DNA from: a virus
Lineage: Duplodnaviria; Caudoviricetes
Virus record (IMG/VR): IMGVR_UViG_3300010167_001484
Location: 128,001 to 192,000 of that record
Reading direction: 5' to 3' (one strand)
DNA: 64,000 bases
Positions 32,982 through 63,017 of the stretch are shown piece by piece. The first letter of the stretch is position 1. The number at the start of each line of letters is the position of its first letter. The position numbers were made by a program, and so were the translations under genes. Below the pieces are notes generated by a model. It did not search any database, had not been told where the DNA came from, and saw nothing but the letters and a program-made list of their open reading frames with translations.

Positions 32982-33362
32982 ATGAAAAAATTAGTAAGAG
33001 CATTCACAGGTACGAAACAATATGAAGGGTTCAAATTACTTGATCCTAAAACAAAAGAACTTCATTACTTTCCATATAAATCTGGTAGAAAAAATACAGA
33101 TGTTGAGAATGAAGCAATAAGTAAATTGAAAGAAGAAACAGGTTATGGTGGCTTCATGGTATATGAACTTGTTAAGTCGAGTACAGATGCTAAAGTAACT
33201 GCAGCAAGTGGAGAGGATGTTTGTTTCAAAGTAACATTAGAAGTAACTATGTCGGGAGAAGTGTTTGATAGATATTCTGATGATAGTGATGATATCCAAG
33301 AACAGATAATTCATCTGATAGAAATAGGTCAATTTGAATTTATTGATTCAGAATATTGTTAA
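32982..33362 (+). CDS. Leader-bearing (MKKLVRA) protein
   Basis: AAGGAG RBS; internal LVKSS and VTAAS motifs. Confidence 0.65.
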   Translation: MKKLVRAFTGTKQYEGFKLLDPKTKELHYFPYKSGRKNTDVENEAISKLKEETGYGGFMVYELVKSSTDAKVTAASGEDVCFKVTLEVTMSGEVFDRYSDDSDDIQEQIIHLIEIGQFEFIDSEYC

Positions 33363-33392: not shown

Positions 33393-34841
33393 ATGGCTGC
33401 AAAAGTTAAATCTGCAAATATAACAAATTCAACTATTTTAGGAGTATTCGATGGTGAAACAATGGATACAACTATAACTAATCTTAATGGATTGGATATC
33501 ACTGCGGAAGTTATGGATGCTGTATTTGAGTCAGATGAATACAAACAAGGTATAGATAAGGGTTGGTATATTGGTTTCTTAGGTCATCCTGAAGATCCTA
33601 ATGAAATGGGATTCCAGGATGGTTGTATTGTGATGACTGAAGGTCATATGGATGATAGTGGGAAGGTATATGGTAAATTTAATCTCATTGATACTCCTGT
33701 TGGTCGTGTTGTCAAGACATTCATAGATGCTGGAGTTAAATTCGGAATATCTATTCGTGGTGCAGGAGATATTGAGAATAATTCTGTAGATCCCGAAACA
33801 TTTGTATTCAGAGGATTTGATTTAGTATCTTTTCCTGCTTATCCTGACTCAGTTCCAAAATTTACTGAAATTGCAGCAAGTACTGATGCTAAAGATAGAG
33901 CCAAGTATAAGAAAATCTGTGCTTCAATTGCAACCAACCTTCAAGATATTAATAGTATTGAAGCTTTAGATATAATTCAAAGTAATTTTGCACCACAATC
34001 AAAAGAATTTAAAATGTTAGAAGATAGACGTAAGTCCATTGAAGCATCTGATATAATATCTATAAATGACGCAAAGATAACCGGTATGACTGAGTTATAT
34101 ATAGAAGCAGTTGAAGCTAATAAGAATTTATTACTTGAAATTGAATCACTCAAAAAACAAGTGTCAAAATACTCAGTTACGGCTAATCAGCGTCTAGCTA
34201 AAATTAGACGTATTGTAGGTAATCAACTTTCTGTTGTAACTACTAATAGAGATGAGCTAGTTACTGCTAATGAAGAATTGGTTCAAGCTGCGTCTGAGTC
34301 TAAGTTGTATCAAAGAGAGTTAGAAAGAAACAATAGATTATTAGAACAATCTATTGGAGAATTAGAAGCATATATTAAAGAATTAGAGTTAGATAATAAG
34401 AAATTATCTAAGAGAATAGCCTCTTCAGAGAATTCTAACCTTATATATAGTGATAAGATAGAAAGTCACAAAGCCGAAATTAGAAAACAAGCCGATGTTA
34501 TCGCTAGTCTGAGAGCAGAGCTCGATGAAACTGTCAACGGTGCATCTGATTTGGAAGACCAGACATCAAACCTTGATGAAAGAAACAAAGACTTAGATTC
34601 TAAGATTAAAGCTTCAAATCGCCTTCTTAGAGCATACCAGAATGCTTATAGCAAATTGTATGCTTCTGCTATAGGTAGTGACTATCATCTTGATTCATTG
34701 TCTATAACAGCGTCAACATCTGTACCTGAGCTTCAGAAAATAATTTCTGCAAGTTCTAATAATCTATCTGGTATTTTCGCAGAACCTGAACAGATTGATC
34801 TAGTAGATGGTGACCTAGACAATAATGTTATCATTTTATAA
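33393..34841 (+). CDS. Prohead core protease (T4 gp21-like) fused to a coiled-coil scaffold region
   Basis: LGHPE, GKFNLIDTPVG, GISIRGAG, FDLVSFPA; heptad-rich C-terminal half; immediately upstream of MCP. Confidence 0.85.
   Translation: MAAKVKSANITNSTILGVFDGETMDTTITNLNGLDITAEVMDAVFESDEYKQGIDKGWYIGFLGHPEDPNEMGFQDGCIVMTEGHMDDSGKVYGKFNLIDTPVGRVVKTFIDAGVKFGISIRGAGDIENNSVDPETFVFRGFDLVSFPAYPDSVPKFTEIAASTDAKDRAKYKKICASIATNLQDINSIEALDIIQSNFAPQSKEFKMLEDRRKSIEASDIISINDAKITGMTELYIEAVEANKNLLLEIESLKKQVSKYSVTANQRLAKIRRIVGNQLSVVTTNRDELVTANEELVQAASESKLYQRELERNNRLLEQSIGELEAYIKELELDNKKLSKRIASSENSNLIYSDKIESHKAEIRKQADVIASLRAELDETVNGASDLEDQTSNLDERNKDLDSKIKASNRLLRAYQNAYSKLYASAIGSDYHLDSLSITASTSVPELQKIISASSNNLSGIFAEPEQIDLVDGDLDNNVIIL
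34437..34449 (+). promoter_or_regulatory. Putative late promoter internal to the protease gene (upstream of MCP)
   Basis: AACCTTATATATA. Confidence 0.5.
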
Positions 34842-34867: not shown

Positions 34868-36310
34868 ATGGCAATTATAACAAAGCGCAAATCTAAAACT
34901 CCTGTGACTGCTGCCCGTAAACCTGTTCAAGCTAGTAATAATATCACATCAGGTGTACGTAGTAGATCTAATTCACAGCGAGTTGCTGCTAATTTTGCTA
35001 AGTTAGATCCGAATCAGCAAGCTTTTGCTCGTCAACTTCAGGCTAACTGCCGCAAACATTCAGCAATAATGGGCGCAACAAATACATCGAATATTGCAGC
35101 GCGTCCTGATTTTATTGAACTGCTTCCGTTGTTCGTCCAGAAATTACTCATTCTTGATGTATTCGGCTCAGTAGCGATGAAATCACGTCAACAAATTATC
35201 CCTTACTTCAAAGTAGTGAGTGAAACAACTAAAGGTGAAACGAATAAAGGCGATGTTTTCAATACACCGTTTGTTAACCGTCAAGGTTTAGACGGTAACT
35301 TCACAGGCCGTGTTGTAAAGAACGAAGTCATGGCTGCAGAAGGTGGATTTACATCTGGTGCAGTTAATTATATCCCCGTACTTCCTGGTTCTGTAACAAT
35401 CAATGCTAACATTAGTGGAGTTACTAATATCTATACAGATGATGGTGCTGGTACTATCCTTGGTGCTGATGGTTCCGAAGAAGGTACAATTGCATATGAT
35501 ACTGGACTTATCACAATGGGTGATCCTATCGACACAAATGTAGGTGATACCGTTAAAGCTACTTACCAGTATGACAATGAGACTGTTGGTCCGGATGTCA
35601 ATGGAGACTATGGCGCTAGAATGGGTAAAGTCTATCTCCAGTTAGATGAATTCAATCTAGTAGCAACTGCCCACGAACTCGCAAGCTATTGGTCAATTTT
35701 CTCCGCGTTTGCAGCCCAGAATGAATGGGGTACAAACATCGGTGATATGGCTAAAGAAGCAGCTTTCTCCGAATTGACAGCTGAGATCAATACAAAAGGT
35801 TTCAAAGCTCTTGAAAAAGCAGCGACCTATAAACCTCAGTACAACTGGGATGCTTCTCCTGTTTTGTCAGGTAGCGTTGTACCGTCAGATTACTTGAACA
35901 TGTTTAAACTTAAACTCGGTCAAGCGTCAGCTTCTATATATCAGGCAACAAGACTTACCCGTCCGAACCGACTTACAATGGGTGCTAATGCTGCAGAATA
36001 TATGAAAATGATCAATGGATTCTCTGCTGATAATATTGACGATACGGTTGGTCCATATAAGCTTGGTACACTTGATAACTTCGAATGCTATGTTGAGCCT
36101 TCGTATGACCCGAACAAGTGGGTAATGTCCTGTAAGAGTACAGACATTCGCAGGAATAGCGGATTGTTTGGGGAGTATATGCCCTTCACAGCTACTGATG
36201 CAATCGGCCTTGCGAACGCTAGTGTGCAGCAAGGATATGCTACGATGTATTGCATGGAAGTGGTCAACCCGGCAACAATCGTTTCTGGAAAGATTGTTGG
36301 AGTATTCTAA
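34868..36310 (+). CDS. Major capsid protein (gp23-like, HK97 fold) with basic N-terminal propeptide
   Basis: Follows the protease; ELASYWS..A......G, ELTAEIN, GEYMP, GYATMY..VVNP motifs; highly expressed codon style. Confidence 0.85.
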   Translation: MAIITKRKSKTPVTAARKPVQASNNITSGVRSRSNSQRVAANFAKLDPNQQAFARQLQANCRKHSAIMGATNTSNIAARPDFIELLPLFVQKLLILDVFGSVAMKSRQQIIPYFKVVSETTKGETNKGDVFNTPFVNRQGLDGNFTGRVVKNEVMAAEGGFTSGAVNYIPVLPGSVTINANISGVTNIYTDDGAGTILGADGSEEGTIAYDTGLITMGDPIDTNVGDTVKATYQYDNETVGPDVNGDYGARMGKVYLQLDEFNLVATAHELASYWSIFSAFAAQNEWGTNIGDMAKEAAFSELTAEINTKGFKALEKAATYKPQYNWDASPVLSGSVVPSDYLNMFKLKLGQASASIYQATRLTRPNRLTMGANAAEYMKMINGFSADNIDDTVGPYKLGTLDNFECYVEPSYDPNKWVMSCKSTDIRRNSGLFGEYMPFTATDAIGLANASVQQGYATMYCMEVVNPATIVSGKIVGVF

Positions 36311-49546: not shown

Positions 49547-49702
49547 ATGTATTGTTCAAATTGTAAGGAAGTAGTGAAACCTAACGGACATTTAAGAAGT
49601 GGTATGCTATACTACACTTGTCCTCATTGTGGAGATATATTGACAGATGTCAATAAAGTAGAGAAAATAGAAGATAATTCGGAGGTGAAAATTAGTTGTT
49701 AA
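49547..49702 (+). CDS. Small zinc-ribbon protein (51 aa; absent from the ORF track)
   Basis: MYCSNCKE...YTCPHCG. Confidence 0.55.
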   Translation: MYCSNCKEVVKPNGHLRSGMLYYTCPHCGDILTDVNKVEKIEDNSEVKISC

Positions 49703-52371
49703 ATATTATCCAAGAAGGTAAGTTATATAAGATTTCGTTCAAGTATGACCCTCAGATAGTTTATTTTGTAAAAAATGTTCCAGGTAGAAGGTATAGTTCA
49801 AATCCCAAATCTTGGACAATTCCTATGGAGAACCTAGGTTTCTTCTTAAATGAGATCAAGGGTACAGAATATGAGAAGATAGTTAATATACAGTCTACAG
49901 AAGACCTCAATGTGAATCCAAAAATCGATACAACACATGTGATACCGAATATTGATATATCTAATGTGAATTTCAAGGTTAAAGAAGGTGCTACACCATT
50001 TGCACATCAATTAGATTTCATGAAATTTGCTATTCATAGATATAATAAGGGTAATCATAATGGTTTCATACTCACTGACGAAATGGGGTGTGTTTCTGGG
50101 GATGCTGTTATATCTTTTAAAAAAGGGGGAGCTTCAAGTAAACTATCGTTAAGGCAGTTTTATAATAGATATTATGGACCTAATATATCAGATAGTGTTG
50201 TATCTAGCCTTATAGAGGTTAGATGTTTAGACGAAATTTCTAAGTTATTCCGGCATCGTACATGTGAAAATGTAATATATAGTGGCATCAAATCTGTGAT
50301 TAGATTATCTTTAGATGATGGTAAGATTGTTGATTTAACTCCTGATCATTTAGTACGTATAACTATAGAGGGAGATTATAAGGAGGCAGGTGAATTAGTT
50401 GTTGGTGACGAAGTAGTGATTAATGGGGAACCTGTATGTAGAAGGTGTGGTTCTAATGAAGATATGGTTGTGAGAACGGATGCTAAATTCTATGGTTATT
50501 GTCGAAGGTGTATGTATACTCTACGTGAGGGTACACGCCATAAACATGGTGGAGGAATACATAGACGAATTGATTATGATGGTTATGTATTACTTAGTGG
50601 TCCAGAACTTAGAGATCATCCAAATTACAACTATCTTTGTGGTGTACTGGAACATCATTATGTTATGTCTAAACATATTGGAAGAGGGATCAATACACCT
50701 TATGAAGTAGTTCATCATAAAGATCGAAATAAAACTAATAATGATATAACTAATCTAGAATTGCTAACTACAGATAAACATTGGTTGGAACATTGTAATT
50801 CTGTTGATTATATAGGTAAGGGTGGACTAGTTGTAATGCGCCCAAAATACGCTAAGATTATAGCTATTGAAGATGCCGGTAGTATTGATACCTATGATAT
50901 ACAGATGGAAGCTCCTCATCATAATTTTATAGCTAATGGGGTAGTTGTACATAATTGTGGTAAAACTGTTGAAGTTATGAATCTTGCTTTATATAGACGA
51001 GAGCATCAGAATTATAAACATTGTTTAGTTATTGTTTGTATAAATGGTGCTAAATATAACTGGGTAGAAGATATATTCTTACATACTAATGGTGAAGAAT
51101 TACCTTATATCCTTGGTACAAGAATTAAACGCGATGGTAGATTAAATCATGATGCAGGAAGTAAAGCTAAACTTGAAGATCTAAAATCTGGTTATTGTTA
51201 TGGTAAAGAAGATATTAAATTACCTTATTTTCTTGTTATGAATATTGAAGCAATTAGGATGAAATCTGCGAGAAAAATGCCTATAATGGAAGAAATTATA
51301 AGATTGTGTAGATGTGGATACATTAATATGATTGCAATAGACGAAATCCATCTTAATATGTCCCCTACTTCATTACAAGGTAAAACCATTCTTAAGATTA
51401 AACAACAAACATCTAATTTAGTTGAATGGCTACCTATGACAGGTACACCTATAATAAATAGACCTACAGATGTATTTACACCTCTTAAACTTGTTGGAGG
51501 ACATGAATTCAGTAATTATTGGGTTTGGAATCAACATTTTGTAGTTTATGGAGGATTTCAAGGTCATGATATACTTGGATATAAGAATATCCCTCAATTA
51601 AAAACTATGCTTCAAACGAATATGCTTCGTAGATTAAAAAGAGATGTTTTAGATCTTCCTCCTAAGATATATTTTACAGAATATGTAGAGAATACATCTT
51701 ATCAAAGAAGGTTATATCAAGATATTCAAATTGAACTTAAACAGAAGAAGGATGAAATAATAAATCAGATGAATCCTCTAGTTGCACTTCTTAGATTACG
51801 TCAAGTTAACGGTGCACCTGAATTAGTGGATGATAAACTGGTTATAGATAAAGATTATTTGAAGAAAAATGCTAAGATTTTAAGAATTCTGGAGATTTTA
51901 GCTGATATTCATGAGCGAGGAGAAAAGGTCATCATATATAGCAATTGGATTGAACCTCTCAAGACTCTCTATAGATTTATTTCTAAAAAATATAAAGTAT
52001 GTTGTTACACAGGTACAATGAAGAGTTCTGAACGTGAACAGCATAAACAAACATTCATTAATAATCCAGAATATACAATCATGATTGGTACAATCGGTGC
52101 TTTAGGTACAAGTCATACATTAACTGTAGCAAGAAATGTTATATTCTTCGATGAATGTTGGACACCTGCTCAGAAGATTCAGGCTGAAGATCGTATCCAT
52201 CGCCCCGGCACAACACATAGTGTGAACATACATACAATTATAACAAAAGATACAATTGATGAAGTAGTTCATAATATATTAGCTGATAAGAAGGTGATGG
52301 CAGATTATATTGTAGATGGTAGTCTAAATCTTCGCCATAATTCTCAATTGTTTGATAGATTGTTGATGTGA
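49696..52371 (+). CDS. SNF2/SWI2-family (HARP-like) helicase interrupted by an intein
   Basis: N-terminal HARP-like domain; DEMG/CGKT Walker A, IDEIH, MTGTP, LRRLK, QAEDRIHRPG. Confidence 0.9.
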   Translation: MLNIIQEGKLYKISFKYDPQIVYFVKNVPGRRYSSNPKSWTIPMENLGFFLNEIKGTEYEKIVNIQSTEDLNVNPKIDTTHVIPNIDISNVNFKVKEGATPFAHQLDFMKFAIHRYNKGNHNGFILTDEMGCVSGDAVISFKKGGASSKLSLRQFYNRYYGPNISDSVVSSLIEVRCLDEISKLFRHRTCENVIYSGIKSVIRLSLDDGKIVDLTPDHLVRITIEGDYKEAGELVVGDEVVINGEPVCRRCGSNEDMVVRTDAKFYGYCRRCMYTLREGTRHKHGGGIHRRIDYDGYVLLSGPELRDHPNYNYLCGVLEHHYVMSKHIGRGINTPYEVVHHKDRNKTNNDITNLELLTTDKHWLEHCNSVDYIGKGGLVVMRPKYAKIIAIEDAGSIDTYDIQMEAPHHNFIANGVVVHNCGKTVEVMNLALYRREHQNYKHCLVIVCINGAKYNWVEDIFLHTNGEELPYILGTRIKRDGRLNHDAGSKAKLEDLKSGYCYGKEDIKLPYFLVMNIEAIRMKSARKMPIMEEIIRLCRCGYINMIAIDEIHLNMSPTSLQGKTILKIKQQTSNLVEWLPMTGTPIINRPTDVFTPLKLVGGHEFSNYWVWNQHFVVYGGFQGHDILGYKNIPQLKTMLQTNMLRRLKRDVLDLPPKIYFTEYVENTSYQRRLYQDIQIELKQKKDEIINQMNPLVALLRLRQVNGAPELVDDKLVIDKDYLKKNAKILRILEILADIHERGEKVIIYSNWIEPLKTLYRFISKKYKVCCYTGTMKSSEREQHKQTFINNPEYTIMIGTIGALGTSHTLTVARNVIFFDECWTPAQKIQAEDRIHRPGTTHSVNIHTIITKDTIDEVVHNILADKKVMADYIVDGSLNLRHNSQLFDRLLM
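50089..50955 (+). mobile_element. Intein (289 aa) with embedded HNH endonuclease
   Basis: Starts CVSGDA; block B LTPDH; ends YDI..HNFIANGVVVHN followed by +1 Cys; HNH VVHHKDRNKTNNDITNLELL. Confidence 0.9.
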
Positions 52372-52544: not shown

Positions 52545-52644
52545 AAATATGTATTAAATTCGTTATAGTATATTGTCATACTTAATTGTATGTGGATTGA
52601 AATTAGTATATAAAATTATGCTATATAAGAAGGAGTAAATTAAG

Positions 52645-53496
52645 ATGAAAATATTAGTCAGTTCAGCAAGAAAAGATGATCTTATTAAACAAAGAGACCA
52701 ATGGGAATCTGATAATGCTGCCCAGAAATCTAAATATGAAGCACAAAGTAAACAATTCTATGAAAAACAACAAGAAGTATTTGATGATATAAAAAATCAA
52801 GTACTTGGATATTTATCTGAGTGTAAGATAGATATTGTTGTTAATATCATGCAGGCACTTTCATTTCAAGGTGGGGGTATAGAAGTTAGAGTCGAATCTA
52901 ATGAACGCAACGTGCACGGTAAAGATAAAGCACTCAGTTGGAATTGGAGGGTTTCTTTAGATAGTGGAGGTGAGGTTGTTAAGGAAACATCATCTTGGTC
53001 AGGTTTACAAGCTACTACTCCTGCTCAACTTGATTCATTGAGAGAAACTGTAAAAGCTTTAGAAATATTGAATGATATTGATTGGTCACATATGTTAAAT
53101 GTAACTCTTCCTGATTATCGTGAATACGTGACTGAACCGTCTAGTATTGGTCAACGTCCTAAATTTGAATCAGATATTCTTGATGAAGAATTGAAGGCTC
53201 TGATTGGTACTAATACACTAGTTAAGGGTATGTATAAGCCTGATGGTGATAGACATTCACGAGGTATGAATAAAAATTACTATCAATATTATCTGATATT
53301 GAAGGATTCTGGTAGTCAATATACAATAGCTGACGTATCTCGAGATCAAGTTGAAAATGAGGAGTATCGTAGAGGTAAGACTCTTGCTGAACTTGTTGAA
53401 AGTGCTAAAAAGTATTCAAATAGAATCAGAAAAGATACATTCCAACAGATGTTATTCAAACCTCTTGAAACTGTTGATGTTGGTGGTGTTGAATAA
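52645..53496 (+). CDS. Leader-bearing (MKILVSS) protein
   Basis: AAGGAG RBS; first gene of the array. Confidence 0.65.
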   Translation: MKILVSSARKDDLIKQRDQWESDNAAQKSKYEAQSKQFYEKQQEVFDDIKNQVLGYLSECKIDIVVNIMQALSFQGGGIEVRVESNERNVHGKDKALSWNWRVSLDSGGEVVKETSSWSGLQATTPAQLDSLRETVKALEILNDIDWSHMLNVTLPDYREYVTEPSSIGQRPKFESDILDEELKALIGTNTLVKGMYKPDGDRHSRGMNKNYYQYYLILKDSGSQYTIADVSRDQVENEEYRRGKTLAELVESAKKYSNRIRKDTFQQMLFKPLETVDVGGVE

Positions 53497-53508
53497 AGGA
53501 GATATATA

Positions 53509-53874
53509 ATGAAGAGATTAATCAAAGCTGCAGATAATAATGATGTAATACTTTCATCTGAATATTTTGATTTAGTGTCTAGATCAGGTACAGGTATGGG
53601 TAATGTACCTTGGAGTAGTTATGAAATTTATTCTAAAGGTCTAGCTGAAGATTTGATAGTTAGAATTGATTTAAATAATCAAAATATTGATTTCAATAGT
53701 TGGAAAGAAGGTGAACCTCCTTTAAAATATATACCATATAGTATATGTATTAATTGGGGATTTTCTTCTCAAGGTGATCCTGATGTAATTGGGATGATAA
53801 CAGTACTTCAAGAAGCCATGAAATTTGGTAATGAAGTTGCTGAGCATTTTGGTATTAAAACTATTAATTTTTAA
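53509..53874 (+). CDS. Leader-bearing (MKRLIKA) protein
   Basis: ORF plus RBS. Confidence 0.65.
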   Translation: MKRLIKAADNNDVILSSEYFDLVSRSGTGMGNVPWSSYEIYSKGLAEDLIVRIDLNNQNIDFNSWKEGEPPLKYIPYSICINWGFSSQGDPDVIGMITVLQEAMKFGNEVAEHFGIKTINF

Positions 53875-53901
53875 TCAATTTAGAAGAAGGATAGATGTAT
53901 C

Positions 53902-54114
53902 ATGAAGAAAGTTGTAAAATCTGAAATTGAAATATCTGATGATATGCTTAAGCGGTTGCTTAGAGAAGTTGCTAGATTGTCTAATAAGATATTAGATGAT
54001 AAAAATTATGATGAGATTTATCATATGTCTGAAGAAACACGCAAAAAAGTTAAAACTCTTTGTAATAATTTCTTGGATACTATCATATATGAACTTGAAT
54101 TAGATAGAGGCTGA
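53902..54114 (+). CDS. Leader-bearing (MKKVVKS) protein
   Basis: ORF plus RBS. Confidence 0.65.
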   Translation: MKKVVKSEIEISDDMLKRLLREVARLSNKILDDKNYDEIYHMSEETRKKVKTLCNNFLDTIIYELELDRG

Positions 54115-54116
54115 AT

Positions 54117-54380
54117 ATGAAAAAATTAATTAAATCATCCTCTTATCCAGGAGAAACTTCTCTGGATAAACTTTCTTATATGTTAGGAGATTTAAGTAAT
54201 CATATAACCGAAGTAAATCGTATAGTAAATGATATGTATGCAATATCCACTGAATATAGTGAATTGAATGATATATTGGATAAAAGTACAATTCCATTTA
54301 TTCAAAGTATGATTGAAGATGATAGGCCTGGAAGTATTCCTAGATTACGTCAAGCAATTAAAGATGCAAAGTATTTATAA
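54117..54380 (+). CDS. Leader-bearing (MKKLIKS) protein
   Basis: ORF plus RBS. Confidence 0.65.
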   Translation: MKKLIKSSSYPGETSLDKLSYMLGDLSNHITEVNRIVNDMYAISTEYSELNDILDKSTIPFIQSMIEDDRPGSIPRLRQAIKDAKYL

Positions 54381-54428
54381 GACTTTGTCATATTAATGTA
54401 GTATGTTGATTGAAGAAGGAGATATAAG

Positions 54429-54800
54429 ATGAAGAAGATCATAAGAGCGTCAGATGAAGCAAAATCATACAGAAAATTAATTAAATCTTCAACTATTGAA
54501 GATGAGGATGAAGAAGATCTTGAAGCATGTGACAGTGTTATGGGTGAAGATGGTGCTGATCAGTATGTAGAAGATGATATAATGGGTGCCGAAGGTGGTG
54601 GCTCTAAAGAAGAGGCTTTTGATGAGGGTCTATCTGATTTAAAATCTGATTTTGATTATGCTATGGATGGATTAGATAAGATGGCTCGCGATGGTAATAC
54701 AGATGAAGCACTTTCTCTAGTACTTGAATTTAGTTCAGGTGTTGCAGGTATAATAAGTAAAATAGTAGATGGAATATCTGGAGAAGTTACTGAAGAGTAA
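54429..54800 (+). CDS. Very acidic leader-bearing protein with a tandem leader (MKKIIRAS...RKLIKSS)
   Basis: ORF plus RBS; internal VMG/IMG motifs. Confidence 0.65.
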   Translation: MKKIIRASDEAKSYRKLIKSSTIEDEDEEDLEACDSVMGEDGADQYVEDDIMGAEGGGSKEEAFDEGLSDLKSDFDYAMDGLDKMARDGNTDEALSLVLEFSSGVAGIISKIVDGISGEVTEE

Positions 54801-54811
54801 GGAGATATATT

Positions 54812-55159
54812 GTGAAGAGATTAATAAGGGCTACGTCTGTAAAAGATTGGGATTATAAGAAAGAAAATAGCATTGTAGATCCTTCTTATCTTGAATCTCA
54901 ACTTCCTAATAGTATGAGATATAAAGAGTGGCATCTTGAGCCTAAACGTGCTGACGAATCCACAATTGTTTTTACATGGATAACACAGGGAGAAGTTACA
55001 GATGAAGGATATATGTATATAGAACATTATGCAGATCAGATAGCAGATGATCTTAGATACTATTATGAGGATGCTAAAACATTAGAAGTTGAAATATATC
55101 AAAAGGATTATCGCAATGATAAAACTAAATGGCACACCTTTAGTCAGCCCATTAGATAG
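54812..55159 (+). CDS. Leader-bearing (MKRLIRA) protein
   Basis: GTG start, AAGGAG RBS. Confidence 0.65.
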   Translation: MKRLIRATSVKDWDYKKENSIVDPSYLESQLPNSMRYKEWHLEPKRADESTIVFTWITQGEVTDEGYMYIEHYADQIADDLRYYYEDAKTLEVEIYQKDYRNDKTKWHTFSQPIR

Positions 55160-55167
55160 GAGATATT

Positions 55168-57639
55168 ATGAGAAAAACAATATATGGAAAAAGGAGTACA
55201 CCTGAAGATTTCTTAAATGCACTTGGTGATAAGATAACTGAATTGGAAGGAGGTATAACTTCTGCTCATAGAGCTGGAGATCCTTTTGATGATGAACTAG
55301 ATGATTCAGATGAAATTACACTTCATGCACATTACACTTTACCTGAAGATGTTTATATGGAGATATTAAATCTAGAGTCTGAACAATCACAATATTCTGA
55401 TAAGATTAGCAAAGCTGCTCAATTAGTATCAGAATATGATAGTCATGCTTTCAATATATGGCAAAGGAATGTTGGTGAAGTAGGTAGTCCTGCATATCAA
55501 TATAAAGAACTTACGGATTTACTTGTTATGAAGTATGAAGATATGTATGGAGTACCAGATATAACTGCTGCAACAAATGTGAATACATCTACTAAGCGAA
55601 TTATTCGTGCTACTAAGAAGGGTTCGCCTCAAGATTTTGAAGAAGCACTTCATAGTCGTATATCTGAACTTGAGGGTGGAGTTCAATCTGCAGAATATGT
55701 AGAAGGTGTATTTCTTGATCAAAATGATGCGTATAATGCAAGTACAGGTCAATGGGATGATTATGAATCCGAAGAGCGAGGAGATAATTTCGAATATAAA
55801 GGATTCAATGTTCATAGAGATTGTTGGGATGGTGATGGTGAAACTGGTCCACAAGCCCCTCAAATATATTTTGAAATATATGGTCCTGAAGGTAATGATT
55901 ATACAAATGAGGTAAATTTATCAGCATATTATGATGATAATAGTATAACTGGATATAATTTTGATATATTCAAAGATGATGAAGTTAAACGTGTAATTGA
56001 TGAACTTATATCAAATGGATATAGTTATGAAGAAGTATGTCCTAACTGTCATGGTGGAGGTTGTCCAGATTGTATAGGATTAGATGATATAGATTCATCT
56101 GTGAAAGCCTCATCTGGTGGAGATATAGATCATATAACTGAAGACGATATTCAGTTATGGATAGATGATGAATTGAATGCACTTGAAGATGATGATTGGG
56201 AAGGTTTACAGGATGTTATATGGGCTTGTCCAGATAGTGTTCTTGAGGATGATCTTCAACTTATGTATGATAGTTGTTTACATGATGGTGATTTTGATGA
56301 TTGTGTATCATCCTTAGATGGTATTGCAAGTGATTATATAGATAATTATATTACCTCTAGTGCAGATATAAATGATAAAATTCAAGGTCCTCAAACAAAT
56401 GAAGATTTAGTTGGACTTGCAACAAAATATGGTTTGAATTATGATTACGATGAAGCTGGTAATCTCATTGTATTTGATGAAACATATGATCTCAATCTTG
56501 CAGGATTAGAAGATGGTTACGGCCCTAATATAGATGCTTTCTTTGATGAAGCAAGTCAGAACCCTTCATTCCATTATGAAGATTATGATGGTGAATTCGG
56601 TGTAGGATTCAAGGGAATAAGAGGTATAGCAGATGTGATGGGTGCTGATACATCTAATATTAATTACAATGTAGGTGATTTGTTTGAATTGACAGATACA
56701 TCTCATCCTTATACTTTCGAGATATTGGAAATAACTGATGAACATGTTCAAATACAAAACTTCACCACAGGAGTTACACCTAGCCCTATATCTAAAGATG
56801 AATTTGATTCAAGATGGGGCTCAGGATATTATACTTATACTGGTAATAAGGATACCGCATATGGTCCTATAGAATCTAGTGAATCCATATATGGTACAGG
56901 TGAAGGCGAAGTTGTTTTAAATAATACAAATACAGATGCAGAAGGTATTCTAGCAGCTGATTTACTTAATGATAAAGATTATGTTGAAAGACTTGCATCT
57001 GAAACCGTTGATTGGGTCGCAAATTTTGGATATCAAGCAGGGTATCAAATACAGCCAGATGAAAATTATTTATACTTTGAAGTATTTGATGTAGATGATG
57101 TAGTTATACATGAATATCTTCAATCTATAGCTGATATTGAACCAATTGAAGCCGATCTTTTTGATGATTCTAGAAAACTTGCAGAAGCTATAATGGAGGG
57201 TATACCTGGTTGGGAAGATAATATTGCTAATGATGAGGGTCTAGCACTTGATCGTTCAGAATCTGGTTATGATAAATTTGGTATGCCTTTTGACGGAGTC
57301 GAAAGTTCTCAAGAAATTGTAGCAGATGATTATCCTGTTGAAGATGAATTCAATTCTGCAGTTCAAAGACCTAAGAAATTTAGAAAGTATGAAGCATTTC
57401 TTGATGAGTTAACAGCTATAGCATTTGATTGTGTAGATGTTGATGGTCTCAATTTTGAAAGTACTGCAGTTGATTGGCTTAGTAGTGAATTAAATAATCG
57501 TGATTTAGCTGAAAAATATGTCCGTCGTTTCATTAAAGAGAATGATATGGAGAATTCAGATACTGACTATGATATTGGAACTGATCATTATGGTGAACCT
57601 GAAATTCCTTATACTCCTCCTAACAGATATAGATATTAG
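55168..57639 (+). CDS. Large acidic multidomain (polyprotein-like) protein punctuated by [IV]-x-[ASG] motifs
   Basis: 823 aa; internal leader KRIIRAT; duplicated P[EQ]DF..AL...I.ELEGG[IV].SA module. Confidence 0.65.
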   Translation: MRKTIYGKRSTPEDFLNALGDKITELEGGITSAHRAGDPFDDELDDSDEITLHAHYTLPEDVYMEILNLESEQSQYSDKISKAAQLVSEYDSHAFNIWQRNVGEVGSPAYQYKELTDLLVMKYEDMYGVPDITAATNVNTSTKRIIRATKKGSPQDFEEALHSRISELEGGVQSAEYVEGVFLDQNDAYNASTGQWDDYESEERGDNFEYKGFNVHRDCWDGDGETGPQAPQIYFEIYGPEGNDYTNEVNLSAYYDDNSITGYNFDIFKDDEVKRVIDELISNGYSYEEVCPNCHGGGCPDCIGLDDIDSSVKASSGGDIDHITEDDIQLWIDDELNALEDDDWEGLQDVIWACPDSVLEDDLQLMYDSCLHDGDFDDCVSSLDGIASDYIDNYITSSADINDKIQGPQTNEDLVGLATKYGLNYDYDEAGNLIVFDETYDLNLAGLEDGYGPNIDAFFDEASQNPSFHYEDYDGEFGVGFKGIRGIADVMGADTSNINYNVGDLFELTDTSHPYTFEILEITDEHVQIQNFTTGVTPSPISKDEFDSRWGSGYYTYTGNKDTAYGPIESSESIYGTGEGEVVLNNTNTDAEGILAADLLNDKDYVERLASETVDWVANFGYQAGYQIQPDENYLYFEVFDVDDVVIHEYLQSIADIEPIEADLFDDSRKLAEAIMEGIPGWEDNIANDEGLALDRSESGYDKFGMPFDGVESSQEIVADDYPVEDEFNSAVQRPKKFRKYEAFLDELTAIAFDCVDVDGLNFESTAVDWLSSELNNRDLAEKYVRRFIKENDMENSDTDYDIGTDHYGEPEIPYTPPNRYRY

Positions 57640-57653
57640 AAAGAAGCTAGATT

Positions 57654-58337
57654 ATGAAGGTATTGGTTAGAGCTGCAGTAGAAGATAATGATGATTATAG
57701 ACAAGATGAATCTATTGAATCTAGATTAAATGATATTTATTTAATCTTCAATGATAAGCCTAATAAAGCTCTAGAAGCTAAATGGGAGAAAGCTTGGGAT
57801 CTGTATGAATCTTGGCAAAGACACGGTGATGATAATGATTTACAAGCTGTTATTTCAATAATTTCAAAGGTAGAAAAGTCTAAGAAACAAACTGAGAGAG
57901 TTATCAAGAAAAAACGAGAGGCTGATCCTAATCATCCTGTAGATACAATAGAATATATAGGTGATTTCTTCTATGATGGTAAGCATCTAACATTTAGGAC
58001 TTTTGGTGCTTCTTATAGCTATCAGAATACTTATATATTACGTAATGGTACTAAGATTGATATACCTGCTGCAAAAGATGCGATATCTAATGGAAATATT
58101 AGTGGGGACTATTTTCAAAAAGATGATAAGGTTGCCGAAGTATTGGAATCTATTGGATGGTTTTCACGTGAAAATTTAATCAAAGAATTTGCAAAACAAT
58201 ATCAAGGTTGGAGCAAAGAAGAGTTAGTTACAGAATTGAAGAGTAGAGATTCTAATAGATATAAGAAAGCAGAAGATTATAGTTCTACAGTTATTAGAGA
58301 GTGGTTAGCAGAATGTGATATAGGGAGTCAATGGTAA
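57654..58337 (+). CDS. Leader-bearing (MKVLVRA) protein
   Basis: ORF. Confidence 0.65.
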   Translation: MKVLVRAAVEDNDDYRQDESIESRLNDIYLIFNDKPNKALEAKWEKAWDLYESWQRHGDDNDLQAVISIISKVEKSKKQTERVIKKKREADPNHPVDTIEYIGDFFYDGKHLTFRTFGASYSYQNTYILRNGTKIDIPAAKDAISNGNISGDYFQKDDKVAEVLESIGWFSRENLIKEFAKQYQGWSKEELVTELKSRDSNRYKKAEDYSSTVIREWLAECDIGSQW

Positions 58338-58341
58338 TATA

Positions 58342-58638
58342 ATGAAACGTGTTATTAGATCTGCATGGAAATCATCTTGGAATGATAAATTTGATGAAAA
58401 TATTGCTGGTTCAATAATTCCAATTGAAGTAGCTCAAGAAATTGATGATGCTGGTGGATATATAACACAAGAGAATAATCATACTTTTATTAGTTGTTCA
58501 AATGATGTGAATATCTTTAGATTATTAGATGATGCAGATATTGAATATTCTTGGAAACATGATTCTAGAGGTGATTTCAATTATAAAGATATGCCAGGAT
58601 TTTATGATATAATAATTACAATTGATAATAATCAATAA
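58342..58638 (+). CDS. Leader-bearing (MKRVIRS) protein
   Basis: ORF. Confidence 0.65.
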   Translation: MKRVIRSAWKSSWNDKFDENIAGSIIPIEVAQEIDDAGGYITQENNHTFISCSNDVNIFRLLDDADIEYSWKHDSRGDFNYKDMPGFYDIIITIDNNQ

Positions 58639-58665
58639 ATACATTTTAAGGTAAGGTGAAGTAGT

Positions 58666-59802
58666 ATGAAAATATTGATAAAAGCTTCAGATAATAAATA
58701 TAATGCAGGTCCATATAAATATATAACGACACATGGTATAGGTCCAGGCACATTACCTAAAGATGTTGAACTTGTTAAGGTTGTAGATCTTCCGAATTTT
58801 AGGTGTGAATTATATCTGGATAGACCTTTGACATCTGAAGAGCTTGATTATTATGATATTCGTAGTGAAACAGGTGAAAGAGGTGGAGTCCAAGCATCTA
58901 TTGGACTAAATACTGCGTTGAATGCAGCAATTAGAGCTATAACCTGTGATGATGACGATTATCGTTATAAAATTATGAATAAACTTGCAAGAGGTACTTA
59001 TAAAATTCCTGAGGATATCTCCAGAAGAATTCATGATATCGTAGATAGTTGTGATTCAATGCCTGATGAGTCTAATAATTATCACGGAGATTGTGTAGAT
59101 AAATTGAAAAATATGATGGAAAATTCTGTTGAAGCGAGTCAACAATATATAAAATCAGATGAAACTTCTGATATAGTAGGGGATAGATATACTGGATCTG
59201 GTCTATATTCAGATAGGACTTGGAAAATATTGCCTGTAGATTTATTTAAAAGATTAGCGGAAGCTTTAGCTGATCCTCAAATTGTTGAAACTAAACCTAA
59301 GCACCCAAATCGAAGTGATCTGTATAAGAATAGATTTGAAGCATTTTCTAAAATAATTAATCTTCCAGAAGAATTCACCTCTGAAATTACTCAAACTTGG
59401 GATAGTGGATCACCTAGTGTTAAGATTAGTATAAAGTATGAAGATCAATCTGCTGGATATACTTATGAAGGGATTAGCCGTGAAGGTGAAGCAGGTATTA
59501 AAGATGCTATAAGTGTTATATATGAACGTATGTTAAGATACAGCGAACCTGGTTTATTAGACGAAGATTCTGTAGAGCGTTGGATAATAGTTGACAAAGA
59601 TGGTAAACAGACGTCTGATAAAGAATTTATCAGTGAAGAATCTGCTAACCAATGGAAAGAAGATGCAATCAGAACATGTTTACCTAACTTCAAATTGTCT
59701 TACTTATCAGAATATTATAATAGAGTTGTAAAAACATCTGATTCTACTGTCAAAAGTTCTGTAGATATCGATGATAGTATGCATGTGGGGGTTACTTTAT
59801 GA
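58666..59802 (+). CDS. Leader-bearing (MKILIKA) multidomain protein; first domain DarA C-terminal-like
   Basis: YKYITTHGIGPGTLPK...LYLDRPLTSEELDYYDI; internal VQAS, VEAS, YIKS, VKTS, VKSS motifs. Confidence 0.55.
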   Translation: MKILIKASDNKYNAGPYKYITTHGIGPGTLPKDVELVKVVDLPNFRCELYLDRPLTSEELDYYDIRSETGERGGVQASIGLNTALNAAIRAITCDDDDYRYKIMNKLARGTYKIPEDISRRIHDIVDSCDSMPDESNNYHGDCVDKLKNMMENSVEASQQYIKSDETSDIVGDRYTGSGLYSDRTWKILPVDLFKRLAEALADPQIVETKPKHPNRSDLYKNRFEAFSKIINLPEEFTSEITQTWDSGSPSVKISIKYEDQSAGYTYEGISREGEAGIKDAISVIYERMLRYSEPGLLDEDSVERWIIVDKDGKQTSDKEFISEESANQWKEDAIRTCLPNFKLSYLSEYYNRVVKTSDSTVKSSVDIDDSMHVGVTL

Positions 59803-60491
59803 AAAGATTAGTCAGGACATCTAATGAAATTTTAGGAGTATCTGGAACAATTCGTAGTCAGATTGTATCTAGAATAAGAGAAAGATTATCTTCTGAGCTT
59901 GAAGGTAAATTCAAACTTGCGGATATAGATTGTTATGACGATTACTTCTATTGTAAAGTCATATATTATATTCCTGGTGTTAAAGATGAATTTGTAAATA
60001 AATCAATATCAATTGAATGGGATGATAATAATTCCTCTGATACTATTGATATGATTGATATTGAAGTTGATGCTGTAGTAGAATATTTTAATACTAAGTC
60101 TGGAGAAATTTCAGCTAGATATGATAAATATGCTAAAATTAATCCTCGTACAGAGAAAGCTATTGAAGATAGATTCCGTCTGCATAAAACTTTCAAAGAA
60201 GAGGATGAAGCGGTAGATGCTGCAATAAATATATTATCTAAATTCAATTTTGAAGTTGATATTTCTTCTAGAAAAGAACGGGAAGAATTAGATAAAGGTA
60301 TTGAGCCTAGTTCCTATGAACAGAGGATAAATTATGATGTATATCATAATGATAAGTTAGTTAATGGAGGATTACAAGTTAAGAGATGTTTCCGGGATAA
60401 AGAGATGCCTTCGTTAAGTTGGGCTGTTAATGGGGCACCTTTCAATTATTATCTTATACAAATGTATATGTTTGATAAAGCTTATAGATGA
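59799..60491 (+). CDS. Leader-bearing (MKRLVRT) protein
   Basis: ORF; coupled ATGA. Confidence 0.65.
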   Translation: MKRLVRTSNEILGVSGTIRSQIVSRIRERLSSELEGKFKLADIDCYDDYFYCKVIYYIPGVKDEFVNKSISIEWDDNNSSDTIDMIDIEVDAVVEYFNTKSGEISARYDKYAKINPRTEKAIEDRFRLHKTFKEEDEAVDAAINILSKFNFEVDISSRKEREELDKGIEPSSYEQRINYDVYHNDKLVNGGLQVKRCFRDKEMPSLSWAVNGAPFNYYLIQMYMFDKAYR

Positions 60492-60505
60492 TGAGAGATG
60501 TTTTA

Positions 60506-60739
60506 ATGAAAAGATTAATACGTGCAGATAATAATATTTCACCTTATAGTGTAGGTGATAGAGTTTCTTATGATGCTAATATAAGAGGAGTTACACCAAG
60601 ATTAGGTGAGGGTGAAATTGTTAAAGTAAGTAGAGGTTATGCTACAAGTGGTCATTCTACATCTTGGGAATATTCTATAAAAGAAGACGATGGTCATATA
60701 TGGGTAGCTGATGAACTTATGATAATAGACAAATTATAA
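60506..60739 (+). CDS. Leader-bearing (MKRLIRA) small SH3-like protein
   Basis: Start moved to ATG 60506; YSVGDRV..GEIVKV..YSIK. Confidence 0.6.
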   Translation: MKRLIRADNNISPYSVGDRVSYDANIRGVTPRLGEGEIVKVSRGYATSGHSTSWEYSIKEDDGHIWVADELMIIDKL

Positions 60740-60765
60740 TTTATAGGAATTGTGAGATTAGAATT

Positions 60766-61086
60766 ATGAAAAAATTAATTCGAGCTAGTGCAGATTATCG
60801 TAAATGTAGTAGATGTAGAGATTTATTACATATGGAGGAATTCGATGGAGATAATCAAATATGTAACAGATGTATTGATTTACCTGATATAGAGGATGCC
60901 CCTGAATTAAGAATGTGTCAATATTGTCATAAAGAATTTCCTAAAGAAGATATGACTTGGACTATTGACTGTCAAGGTATAAATTACAGATATGTTGATG
61001 ATAGTTGTTATGATAAATTGATGGCTAAAGGGTATGATGGGCAATATTACGATGAGCGAGATGAAAATCTTGATTATGACTATTGA
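60766..61086 (+). CDS. Leader-bearing (MKKLIRA) zinc-finger protein
   Basis: CSRC, CNRC, CQYC. Confidence 0.65.
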   Translation: MKKLIRASADYRKCSRCRDLLHMEEFDGDNQICNRCIDLPDIEDAPELRMCQYCHKEFPKEDMTWTIDCQGINYRYVDDSCYDKLMAKGYDGQYYDERDENLDYDY

Positions 61087-61108
61087 TATATGTGAAATGA
61101 GGTAAATT

Positions 61109-61348
61109 ATGAAATTAGTTATTAAAGCAAATGCAGGTATCTCAGCTAATGGTAGATATTATGATTTGATAGATGATAATACTCAAACTGAATCTATAAG
61201 AATATTACGTGATGAGGGCTATTCTAATAATGAGATATTTGATGGAATAGTTAATTATGAAGGTGGATTAGCATCTGGTTGGGAAATACGTAATCTGATT
61301 GAAAGCGTATATAATGTCAAAGTTGATATAATTGCTATGAAGAGTTAA
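61109..61348 (+). CDS. Leader-bearing (MKLVIKA) small protein
   Basis: ORF plus GAGG RBS. Confidence 0.6.
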   Translation: MKLVIKANAGISANGRYYDLIDDNTQTESIRILRDEGYSNNEIFDGIVNYEGGLASGWEIRNLIESVYNVKVDIIAMKS

Positions 61349-61362
61349 TATAGAATTTTGGG

Positions 61363-61842
61363 TTGATAAATATGCTAGATAATAGTCTCGGTAAAAAAGC
61401 AGAAAAGAAAATTAAAGAATGGTTAGATATACCTGAAGATGGTTATTGTTTCGATCGTCTAAAGGATCAACAAACAGGTTTCTATGGTTCTAAGAATATA
61501 TGTGATTTTACATTATTTAAATCACCATATTTTTATTATATAGAATCTAAAAGTACTTGGGAGAATCGTATAGATTTCAGTGTGATAAGTGATTATCAAT
61601 ATGATAACCTTCTTAGAAAATCTAAGATAGAGAATGTATACGGTGTTGTTATAGTGTTATTTGCCACAGAGAAAAGGGCTTTTATTCTAGATATACAGGA
61701 TATACATAAGGTTAAACAAGAAGGAACCAAATCATTGAATATCACAAAAATAGATAAGTGGTCAATTAAATATAGAGAAATACAAACAATACCAAATAAT
61801 CGTAAAGAATTATTAGATTATATAGGTGAATTTGAGGTATGA
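61363..61842 (+). CDS. RecU-like Holliday junction resolvase (PD-(D/E)xK)
   Basis: GKKAE..I; CDF; IESKST; I.F..I..YQ...L; G.VIV.F. Confidence 0.75.
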   Translation: MINMLDNSLGKKAEKKIKEWLDIPEDGYCFDRLKDQQTGFYGSKNICDFTLFKSPYFYYIESKSTWENRIDFSVISDYQYDNLLRKSKIENVYGVVIVLFATEKRAFILDIQDIHKVKQEGTKSLNITKIDKWSIKYREIQTIPNNRKELLDYIGEFEV

Positions 61843-62057
61843 AGAGATTAATTAGGGCATCTAAGACGATAGATCTTGAAGCTCAAGATGTTAAGCCTGG
61901 AGATCAATTGATTTTAGATAATCCGAGTGATGTAGAAGAGGTTATAGAATCTTTCACCAAAAATTCTAATAAGGGTTTAGAAACTACAATAATCACTTCT
62001 GGTAATATATATCATACATATGATTGTAATACATATGTATCAGTGATACGAACTTAA
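61839..62057 (+). CDS. Leader-bearing (MKRLIRA) small protein
   Basis: A.DVKPGD SH3-like start. Confidence 0.6.
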   Translation: MKRLIRASKTIDLEAQDVKPGDQLILDNPSDVEEVIESFTKNSNKGLETTIITSGNIYHTYDCNTYVSVIRT

Positions 62058-62077
62058 ACAGAAAGGGAATTCATATT

Positions 62078-62413
62078 ATGAAAAAATTAATTAAAACAGC
62101 TGAAGAGTTGAATCCTGTATTTAATCAGTTAGCTGATTCGGCAATTGCTGCTGGATATGATTTAAATGTTGATGGTCATGATATTATATTGACAACTGAT
62201 AATGAGATGTTTCCAACTCTCGATGTTATATCTGAACCCTTTAAAGATGGTTTCACATATGATGTTACTATGTCATTTCCTGTGTTGAATGCAGATAATA
62301 TGGAATATGTTGATTCAGCTGAATATTATATAAAATTGTGGTTACAGATTGCAAAATTTGTTACACAAATACATAAATTTACATATTCTGAAACTGAGGA
62401 ATCTGAAATATGA
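62078..62413 (+). CDS. Leader-bearing (MKKLIKT) protein
   Basis: ORF plus RBS. Confidence 0.6.
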   Translation: MKKLIKTAEELNPVFNQLADSAIAAGYDLNVDGHDIILTTDNEMFPTLDVISEPFKDGFTYDVTMSFPVLNADNMEYVDSAEYYIKLWLQIAKFVTQIHKFTYSETEESEI

Positions 62414-62607
62414 AGATATTTGTTAAAGCTAGTATGAAAAGTCGTTCAGGTGTATTCTTCAGATTAGATACCAGATTACAAGGATTTTTAACAGATCTGG
62501 AATATCTCAAACATCTATTTGATGAAGGAGAACTCACAGAAGAGGATGCATATGAAATATTGAATTTAATCCAAGGTGCACATACTCAAATTCAAGAATA
62601 TGTATAA
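62410..62607 (+). CDS. Leader-bearing (MKIFVKA) small protein
   Basis: ORF; coupled. Confidence 0.6.
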   Translation: MKIFVKASMKSRSGVFFRLDTRLQGFLTDLEYLKHLFDEGELTEEDAYEILNLIQGAHTQIQEYV

Positions 62608-62630
62608 ATAGAATATAGTATAAGAATATC

Positions 62631-62675
62631 TATTATAACCTTTTATAGTTCTGTAAAGGGTTATAATAATTTTTG
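62631..62675 (+). terminator. Terminator hairpin whose 5' arm contains a late-promoter-like motif
   Basis: TATTATAACCTTTTATA-GTTC-TGTAAAGGGTTATAATA then ATTTTT. Confidence 0.55.
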
Positions 62676-62702
62676 TAAATTATTAGGAAAGTAGTTACTA
62701 TA

Positions 62703-63017
62703 ATAAAGAAATTAATTAAATCTGCATCAGCCAGTACATATCAAGGAACAATATCAATTAATACTGGTAATATCATGTCTGCTATGGAGAAGTTGTATGA
62801 ATTTAGTGAGGATAATGTTAATTTAAGTGATGAATATGCATTTTTGACAAGACAAGAACAAGTTGAATTATTTTCTATGTGTGCAAATGCGTCACAAGAT
62901 ATATATGATTTAGTCATTAAATTGAATAATGAGATTTATGACTATCTTAATGGGAAATACCAACAAAGTGATGAACATGATGATTCTTTAAATTTTAAAC
63001 TTATGGGAGATCTATAA
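62703..63017 (+). CDS. Leader-bearing protein with ATA at the start position (xKKLIKSA...)
   Basis: ATA AAG AAA TTA ATT AAA TCT in frame with and 72 nt upstream of the called ATG at 62775. Confidence 0.55.
   Translation: MKKLIKSASASTYQGTISINTGNIMSAMEKLYEFSEDNVNLSDEYAFLTRQEQVELFSMCANASQDIYDLVIKLNNEIYDYLNGKYQQSDEHDDSLNFKLMGDL

Follow-up and report, generated by a model that had tools for sequence, protein, structure and literature searches.

Why should a run of phage genes whose products are otherwise largely unrelated begin with the same seven residues? The question is raised by positions 52645-63017 of the stretch considered here (the window), which comprises 64,000 nucleotides (nt) and corresponds to bases 128001-192000 of the 214,046-bp genome of an uncultured, T4-like phage from a termite-gut sample (IMG/VR record IMGVR_UViG_3300010167_001484). 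The GC content is 33%, and the + strand bears nearly all of the genes. An earlier note on this DNA had likened the shared heptapeptide to the capsid targeting sequence (CTS) found on internal proteins of T4. Having followed the peptide across the genome and into relatives of the phage, we favour a reading that we nonetheless regard as evenly poised: the peptide would be a propeptide that directs proteins to the prohead, comparable to the T4 CTS, carried at the N-terminus of an unusually large set of cargo proteins and cut off by a protease that has dispensed with the usual need for Glu. This reading draws on sequence comparison and on the analogy with T4.

The seven-residue tag and the genes that carry it

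The consensus of the tag is M-K-[KR]-L-[IV]-[RK]-[AS], followed by a small polar residue, and it is present on about 39 of the ~290 genes of the genome (~38 with real starts and one with an ATA start; 13% of genes). Eighteen of these, including the one with the ATA start, lie within 52645-63017. When the whole genome was scanned for the relaxed pattern M-[KR]-x-[LIVFMT]-[IV]-[KRSY]-[ASTG], ignoring gene calls and hence any assumption about starts, the coding strand gave 41 matches, 39 of them with an open reading frame (ORF) of at least 40 amino acids (aa) and ~38 of them true gene starts; the opposite strand gave three, only one of which had an ORF of that length. The strict motif occurs at 29 of the 289 called N-termini and at 7 of 65,072 internal positions, making it ~1000 times rarer internally: three of the seven are mis-called starts and, of the four that are not, two fall within tagged proteins, one of them at a domain boundary. 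Similarly, a degenerate DNA pattern for the tag found 22 forward matches, 21 of them at gene starts, with none on the reverse strand and none in the backwards control.

Conservation ends abruptly: the information content drops sharply past residue 8 and nothing is conserved from residue 9 onwards. Residue 8 itself, which lies outside the search pattern, is S, N, D or A in 28 of 36 cases. The tag has a mean charge of +2.75, and the proteins behind it are of the opposite character, with a median isoelectric point of 4.5 (5.6 in other proteins) and a net charge per 100 aa of -8.5 (-2.4 in the others; Mann-Whitney p = 1e-9). By BLASTP, the protein bodies are mutually unrelated, save for three weak or paralogous pairs, and only DUF4116 exceeded the cut-off when 20 tagged proteins were scanned against Pfam and 10 against PHROG. 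A full-text literature search with the tag strings found no paper, and megablast of the array against phage records gave no match. The tag has two hydrophobic residues only, and residues 8-16 are polar or acidic; a Sec or lipoprotein signal, which would need a hydrophobic core of ~7-15 residues, was rejected; the earlier note had already dismissed a Sec signal. The N-terminal motif of the Prp/L27 type, known from Firmicute phages, was likewise set aside, there being no F-F/A-type site in the tag.

The array and its immediate surroundings are laid out below in window coordinates; the two relatives mentioned are a 218,791-bp metagenome contig (JGI 3300042608; the 218-kb relative) and a complete 148-kb genome.

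52559-52566, +: P1 promoter-like motif, core TTCGTTAT of TTTCGTTATAGTA, 86 nt before the first array gene
52622-52629, +: P3 promoter-like motif TATATAAG, 23 nt before the ATG of 52645
52645-53496, +: tagged gene, 283 aa; weakest tag (S at position 6); the orthologue in the 148-kb relative has a similar N-terminus
53509-53874, +: tagged gene, 121 aa
53902-54114, +: tagged gene, 70 aa
54117-54380, +: tagged gene, 87 aa
54429-54800, +: tagged gene, 123 aa; the motif recurs in full at residues 15-21
54812-55159, +: tagged gene, 115 aa; GTG start; orthologue placed in the other array in the 218-kb relative
55168-57639, +: gene with a variant tag, 823 aa; internal motif at residue 143
57654-58337, +: tagged gene, 227 aa
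58342-58638, +: tagged gene, 98 aa
58666-59802, +: tagged gene, 378 aa; Pfam DarA_C at an E-value of 0.005, below threshold and not evidence
59799-60491, +: tagged gene, 230 aa
60506-60739, +: tagged gene, 77 aa; translation really begins at the second ATG in the ORF called at 60488
60766-61086, +: tagged gene, 106 aa; Cys-rich, zinc-finger-like body; orthologue placed in the other array in the 218-kb relative
61109-61348, +: tagged gene, 79 aa
61363-61842, +: RecU-family gene within the array, untagged; Pfam RecU at an E-value of 5e-6, above the cut-off
61839-62057, +: tagged gene, 72 aa
62078-62413, +: tagged gene, 111 aa
62410-62607, +: tagged gene, 65 aa; last in the P1-headed unit
62638-62647, +: P4 promoter-like motif, core ACCTT[AT]TATA of TAACCTT[AT]TATA, of the class found before virion genes
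62703-63017, +: tagged gene, 104 aa; probably starts at an ATA codon, preceded by AGGAAAG

The last of these genes is followed directly by one (63020 onward) whose 770-aa product contains a phage tail lysozyme domain. In the 823-aa product of 55168-57639, the N-terminal domain is repeated, with the residue-143 motif at the head of the repeat, suggesting that this gene is a fusion of two tagged genes. The body of the 54429-54800 product is homologous to a 75-aa protein in the 148-kb relative.

Most of what the earlier note had read from this stretch stands. Its 17 ATG or GTG N-termini in 52645-63017 are all present, and the start that it gave as xKKLIKS is real: it is the ATA at 62703, in frame with the ORF called at 62775 and 11 nt past the Shine-Dalgarno-like AGGAAAG. 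The untagged state of RecU is confirmed by the gene at 61363-61842, which sits inside the array. The enrichment over other positions on which the proposal depended is evident from the N-terminal and internal counts, and the lack of kinship and the acidity of the bodies beyond residue ~8 agree with the BLASTP, isoelectric point and charge figures. The estimate of ~26 tagged ORFs is exceeded by the genome-wide total, even though only five of the eight starts that had been listed outside the array (735, 1528, 1815, 32372 and 32982) are good; those at 8214, 23885 and 38126 are weak variants that fail the motif.

Two sets of sequences lie near the edge of the definition. The gene at window 14986-15744 probably starts internally, at M-K-V-L-L-Y-K, and its orthologue in the 148-kb relative has a tag-like N-terminus. 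A paralogous family at genome 8058-8791, 207314-207787 and 61903-62280 carries a tag-like M-K-K-L-I-R-N followed by a conserved segment of the S-I-L-G-M-A type; as this N-terminus is part of a homologous domain, the members may be look-alikes rather than tagged cargo.

Across the genome, 31 of the ~39 tagged genes sit in two arrays, and the full set is placed as follows.

Genome 96.1-102.9 kb: first large array, 14 tagged genes, upstream of the terminase
Window 52645-63017: 18 tagged genes, 17 in the P1-headed array and the ATA-start gene 62703 behind P4
Genome 128.7-130.5 kb: three tagged genes, behind a P4 site at window 689, namely the next three lines
Window 735-1478, +: first of the three, 247 aa, with DUF4116 repeats
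Window 1528-1701, +: 57 aa, GTG start
Window 1815-2507, +: 230 aa, G at position 7
Window 32372 and 32982: two tagged genes of the head operon, flanking a conserved acidic protein, directly before the protease
Genome 53080, 55106, 203284 and 207813: four tagged genes, scattered singly

The P1, P3 and P4 classes were assigned by position only, and any timing given to them is presumptive. Copies of P1 (TTTCGTTATAGTA) number about 30 genome-wide and are mostly 5' of non-structural genes, and the sequence downstream of the copy at 52559 resembles that behind the copies at genome 557 and 46888. P3 recurs at genome 97-101 kb, where it lies 5' of several tagged members of the first array. P4 has nine copies, eight of them intergenic and all within genome 122-201 kb, the part that holds the virion genes; several are directly 5' of sheath-region and fibre genes. 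A textbook promoter, TTGACT-17-TATAAT, is found at genome 196300-196399; its difference from P1, an abundant motif, suggests that the latter falls outside the host-sigma early class. Separately, the palindrome TCGTATAAATATACGA occurs in pairs or triplets between genes (window 11785-11826, genome 68025-68070 and 95206-95310); one set sits just 5' of the first tagged array, and an operator or another protein-binding site is possible.

Is it the peptide or the DNA that is conserved? Within the tag, the codons for Ser include AGT as well as TCN, those for Arg AGR as well as CGN and those for Leu TTR as well as CTN, and the replacements are conservative at the level of the amino acids (L/V/I, K/R and A/S/T). 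Upstream of the genes of the second array, that at 52645-63017, there is no common sequence beyond the Shine-Dalgarno or ribosome-binding site and no DNA repeat, and the scattered tagged genes likewise lack one. The use of both codon families, the conservative replacements and the absence of an upstream repeat together point to selection acting on the tag peptide in the 52645-63017 array, as the earlier note had argued from the synonymous variation. The first array is differently built: its tag codons form part of a block, about 30-77 bp long, that is repeated there, and at genome 97338-101030 no fewer than five tagged genes are preceded by a near-exact cassette comprising a CAACTC-N6-GAGTTG hairpin, TATATAAG, a ribosome-binding site and the tag codons. 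There is also a skew in the codons of the tag, with AGG (11 against 3.7 expected) and TTG (11 against 4.6 expected) over-used and CGN and CTN under-used. Given the repeated cassette and the over-use of AGG and TTG, it seems that new tagged genes are generated in part when this 5' cassette is copied.

The head module and its candidate processing sites

Two tagged genes lie in the head operon, the second of them directly 5' of the gene for the prohead protease.

32372-32608, +: tagged gene of the head operon, 78 aa
32622-32972, +: conserved, very acidic head-operon protein, untagged here, 116 aa, charge -19
32982-33362, +: tagged gene directly 5' of the prohead protease gene, 126 aa; second, partial motif at residues 63-67
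33393-34841, +: fusion of prohead protease and coiled-coil scaffold, 482 aa; the proposed reader and cutter of the tag
34868-36310, +: Gp23-type major capsid protein, 480 aa; Gp23 Pfam match above the cut-off

The first ~160 residues of the 482-aa fusion are the prohead protease and the remainder is coiled-coil scaffold. It matches the PHROG head maturation protease family with an E-value of 3.5e-20 and Pfam Peptidase_S77 with an E-value of 8.4e-5 (22.6 bits, under the 27-bit cut-off). PF03420 is carried by most of its 120 listed homologues, and a search for PF03420 gave no match in the phage genome, nor in the control genomes, and so says nothing either way. About 1,265 genomes carry this protease-scaffold family. 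The AlphaFold model of the protease (predicted local distance difference test score, pLDDT, 79) has T4 gp21 as its best match in the PDB (code 5jbl; E-value 1.8e-6, template modelling score 0.59-0.64, 2.9 A over 140 columns), and the herpesvirus proteases are the next fold matches; the profile of the full protease-scaffold, compared with PDB sequences, returned coiled-coil noise only. His65 and Ser120 are invariant in 40 protease sequences and 55 residues apart, the spacing of His85 and Ser140 in T4, and are candidates for the catalytic residues. The terminase and portal lie at genome 103.7-109.1 kb (the portal by a PHROG match), and the portals of relatives carry Portal_T4. As judged from these matches and from the model, the head assembly set, comprising portal, gp21-type protease, scaffold and Gp23-type capsid protein, is of the T4 type.

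Where might such a protease cut? There is no Glu anywhere in the tag, which accordingly lacks the T4-type cleavage motif [LI]-x-E. The candidate sites that are conserved in the phage's own head proteins are of another kind. In an alignment of 40 protease-scaffold sequences (mean identity 43%), the protease domain is closed by [IV]-A-A-S, of which the A-A-S is invariant and which falls in a low-pLDDT linker of the model, and I-x-[G/A] is almost invariant near the C-terminal end of the scaffold. In the ~17-aa segment that precedes the protease domain, [IV]-x-[AS] followed by a small residue is present in 94 of 120 protease N-termini, as against 39% of control windows, and mostly follows basic residues; in both this phage and the 218-kb relative it occupies residues 5-7, the same register as in the tag. 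The N-terminal arm of the capsid protein contributes two conserved [IV]-x-small sites. The second of these lies just before an invariant A-T: in 22 of 40 distant homologues the residue is Glu and in 23 of 40 there is L, I or M two residues before, which is the canonical T4-type [LI]-x-E, whereas in the phage's own family G, A or S stands in place of the Glu. A more distant lineage with Ser at this column has I-A-S at its protease-scaffold junction. Because [IV]-x-small is conserved at the protease, junction, scaffold and capsid columns, we infer that the protease of this phage family cuts after a small residue, without the usual need for Glu; the last three residues of the tag would then constitute a predicted site for it.

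The charges of the components are complementary. The capsid N-arm (residues 1-83; window 34868-35120) is basic like the tag, with a net charge of +12, and has no Glu at all; on the acidic side are the protease domain (-15), scaffold (-11) and conserved head-operon protein. A predicted complex between residues 12-158 of the protease domain and the 72-aa tagged protein scored 0.00, which amounts to 'no answer' and speaks neither for nor against an interaction.

The relatives place the tag in the same operon. In the 148-kb relative, the strict pattern has no match and the relaxed pattern eight, with none on the non-coding strand, and among the eight is the conserved acidic protein whose gene immediately precedes that of the protease. 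In this relative's clade, that head-operon protein starts with M-K-K-[VI]-[IV]-[HK]-A, borne on a 13-residue extension that is absent from the other orthologues, including the phage's own 116-aa protein; the homologue search for it returned almost only near-identical sequences. The presence of the tag on this protein indicates that the tag predates the arrays and is linked to the head operon. The 218-kb relative, whose terminase is 80% identical, has ten tagged genes in a syntenic array in the part of the contig that was read. Some tagged genes have orthologues there, with bodies 31-77% identical, and several are without a counterpart; two tagged orthologues have switched arrays between the two phages, and one orthologous pair keeps the tag despite a 20-residue indel directly behind it. 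Relatives with a terminase identity of 75% or less have no tagged arrays. Beyond these phages, an exact-codon scan for the commonest tag gave three single matches in IMG/VR and 113 single matches in metagenome contigs, and none of 80 metagenome loci examined had more than one good tagged ORF, which is the chance level; a multi-copy tag system is therefore not widespread in these collections.

Three further features deserve mention in their own right. The gene of the SNF2-family helicase (window 49696-52371) is split by an intein with an HNH endonuclease domain, and inteins also occur in the terminases of relatives. A tail-fibre-like protein of 1104 aa (window 29035-32349) has collagen-like G-x-x repeats and three copies of a module with alternating His-Thr runs, for which metal binding is possible. 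At genome 111871-113909, three paralogues stand in tandem, each with a T4 Gp10 C-terminal baseplate domain.

A proposed head-loading tag and its alternatives

If the heptapeptide is a prohead-targeting propeptide, its route can be envisaged as follows. The basic, hydrophobic tag would dock the acidic cargo onto the acidic protease-scaffold core during head building, through charge and a short hydrophobic contact, with the capsid protein's very basic N-arm docking likewise. The gp21-fold protease would cut behind residue 7, at [IV]-[KR]-[AS] with a small residue next to it, and the internal motif copies in two of the tagged proteins may be extra cut sites. The trimmed cargo would stay in the head and would probably reach the next host together with the DNA. 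Ejection into the host and an anti-defence role for the cargo are a guess, since no body has a significant family match. In its fullest form, the proposal is that of a universal seven-residue loading tag, by which ~39 proteins are packed into the head, subject to cassette-like turnover and processed by a gp21-fold protease in which Glu has been exchanged for a herpesvirus-like Ala/Ser/Gly specificity; that combination we put forward only tentatively, and consider rather doubtful as a whole.

The T4 analogy drawn in the earlier note thus has partial, circumstantial support: the T4-type head, the tags in the head operon, the tagged protein of the relative and the matching candidate sites agree with it, and the promoter motifs and the acidic bodies do not. 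Several observations weigh against a head-loading role. The principal one is that most of the tagged genes look to be of an early or middle rather than a late class: P1 heads the array at 52645-62607 and P3 precedes several genes of the other array, and neither is P4. Set against this, at least six tagged genes are in late or virion transcription units, the head operon included, and T4 internal proteins are likewise made before the late period. The transcript leader at the P1 site of the array, furthermore, resembles CRISPR-repeat mimics in the same genome. The cargo is strongly acidic, unlike the basic internal proteins of T4, and 39 cargo species are, to our knowledge, far beyond any known case. 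No tagged body has a significant family match beyond DUF4116, and in particular none matches a known family of virion or ejection proteins. As to the cleavage site, [IV]-x-small is a motif of low information, being present in 39% of 17-residue windows, so that the argument rests on the conservation of the columns; and every T4-type and giant-phage prohead protease that has been studied experimentally cuts after Glu (PMC5694885).

Might the tag instead be read by something other than the head? It could be a docking or recognition peptide for a non-capsid partner, such as a host chaperone, a hub protein of the phage or a modifying enzyme with many substrates. That the tag is under selection as a peptide and is found mostly on proteins of arrays that do not look late would suit this, and DnaK classically binds hydrophobic cores with basic residues on either side. 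For the modifying enzyme, a leader of the radical-SAM/SPASM type was rejected, as PF04055 was not found in the 214-kb genome, yet was found in 14 of 14 control genomes; no candidate partner was identified, and a partner outside the head would leave unexplained both the tag on the head-operon proteins and its match to the conserved sites of the head proteins. We judge this explanation unlikely. The peptide might alternatively be an N-terminal degradation signal that limits early host-takeover or anti-defence proteins to a brief, timed existence. It would be read by an AAA+ protease of the host, for example ClpXP, which recognizes basic and hydrophobic motifs at the N-terminus. Non-late promoter motifs before the arrays and small acidic products, which are typical of early phage genes, would fit; the genome, however, encodes no ClpP of its own, at least six of the tagged genes are in the late or virion units, and such a signal gives no role to the internal motif copies or to the head-protein sites. 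We consider it distinctly improbable.

Two further explanations would place the signal, or its absence, in the nucleic acid. Conservation might act on the mRNA at the start of translation, as a translational ramp or as an operator for a RegA-like repressor over the first codons, and the position of the motif exactly at the initiation region, the skewed codons and the repeated block around the tag codons of the first array could all be so understood. The use of alternative codon families for Ser, Arg and Leu, the conservative amino-acid replacements and the lack of a common upstream sequence in the second array are difficult to reconcile with this, and the relatives keep the peptide with different codons; the chance that the signal lies in the mRNA seems to us slight. 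Or the peptide might be a passenger without function, carried along as a cassette of promoter, ribosome-binding site and first codons spreads by duplication or recombination and captures ORFs. The near-exact block that heads five or more genes at genome 97-101 kb and the fast turnover of array genes between the two tagged phages are what would be expected, but the second array and the scattered tagged genes have no DNA repeat, residue 8 is biased too, and the tag persists where the bodies are only 31-56% identical, a divergence over which an unselected heptapeptide would decay. Of the explanations considered, we give this one the least credence, and very little at that.

Were the head-loading tag to prove correct, it would define by far the largest set of capsid-delivered proteins that is marked by a single minimal tag, and would directly name candidates for the counter-defence or takeover proteins that an uncultured gut phage injects. 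It would mean that gp21-type proteases can shift their P1 specificity from Glu to small residues, narrowing the gap between the maturation proteases of phages and herpesviruses, and that a seven-residue tag with a known cutter could serve as a compact handle for the loading of foreign proteins, as the T4 CTS already does. Cleavage would be expected after residue 7 of the tag and at the four sites in the protease-scaffold and capsid proteins.

Comparison with known systems

The internal proteins of T4 are diverse defence proteins that have in common only an N-terminal tag of 10-20 residues, which attaches to the scaffold core and which gp21 cleaves off (PMC3012670, PMC5694885). Like the CTS of IPI, IPII, IPIII and Alt, the heptapeptide is a short N-terminal peptide common to otherwise unrelated proteins in a phage with a T4-type portal, protease and capsid protein, and it ends in what appears to be a site for the phage's own protease. 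The tagged genes are also scattered and variable among relatives, as are the T-even internal-protein loci (PMC3012670, PMC5694885). The differences are nonetheless considerable: the tag is seven residues long rather than 10-20 and has no Glu, whereas T4 cuts after [LI]-x-E; there are ~39 tagged genes here and a handful in T4; and the cargo is acidic, not basic, and mostly associated with non-late promoter motifs. Beyond the initial M-K, the consensus differs from the T4 CTS, with which it has no evident sequence similarity.

Herpesvirus assemblin offers a second parallel, as there too the protease domain is fused N-terminally to the scaffold. The herpesvirus consensus is (V/L/I)-x-A followed by S, which the putative [IV]-x-A followed by S resembles. 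The invariant small-residue site after the protease domain and the second site near the C-terminal end would, by position, correspond to the R and M sites of assemblin (PMC4498786). The protease described here is, however, nearer to T4 gp21 in both sequence and fold. We know of no herpesvirus-like system in which many cargo proteins are tagged.

A third parallel is found in phiKZ, 201phi2-1 and SPN3US, where a gp21-type protease removes N-terminal propeptides from many head-internal proteins and the propeptides are thought to target the prohead (PMC5694885). Those propeptides, however, run from 20 to more than 100 residues, do not share a single short tag and are cut after Glu (A/S/G-x-E). The principle is therefore known from T4 and the phiKZ-like phages; what is new here is the sequence of the tag, its minimal length, the size of the set that carries it and a coherent sign that Glu has been lost at the protease site.

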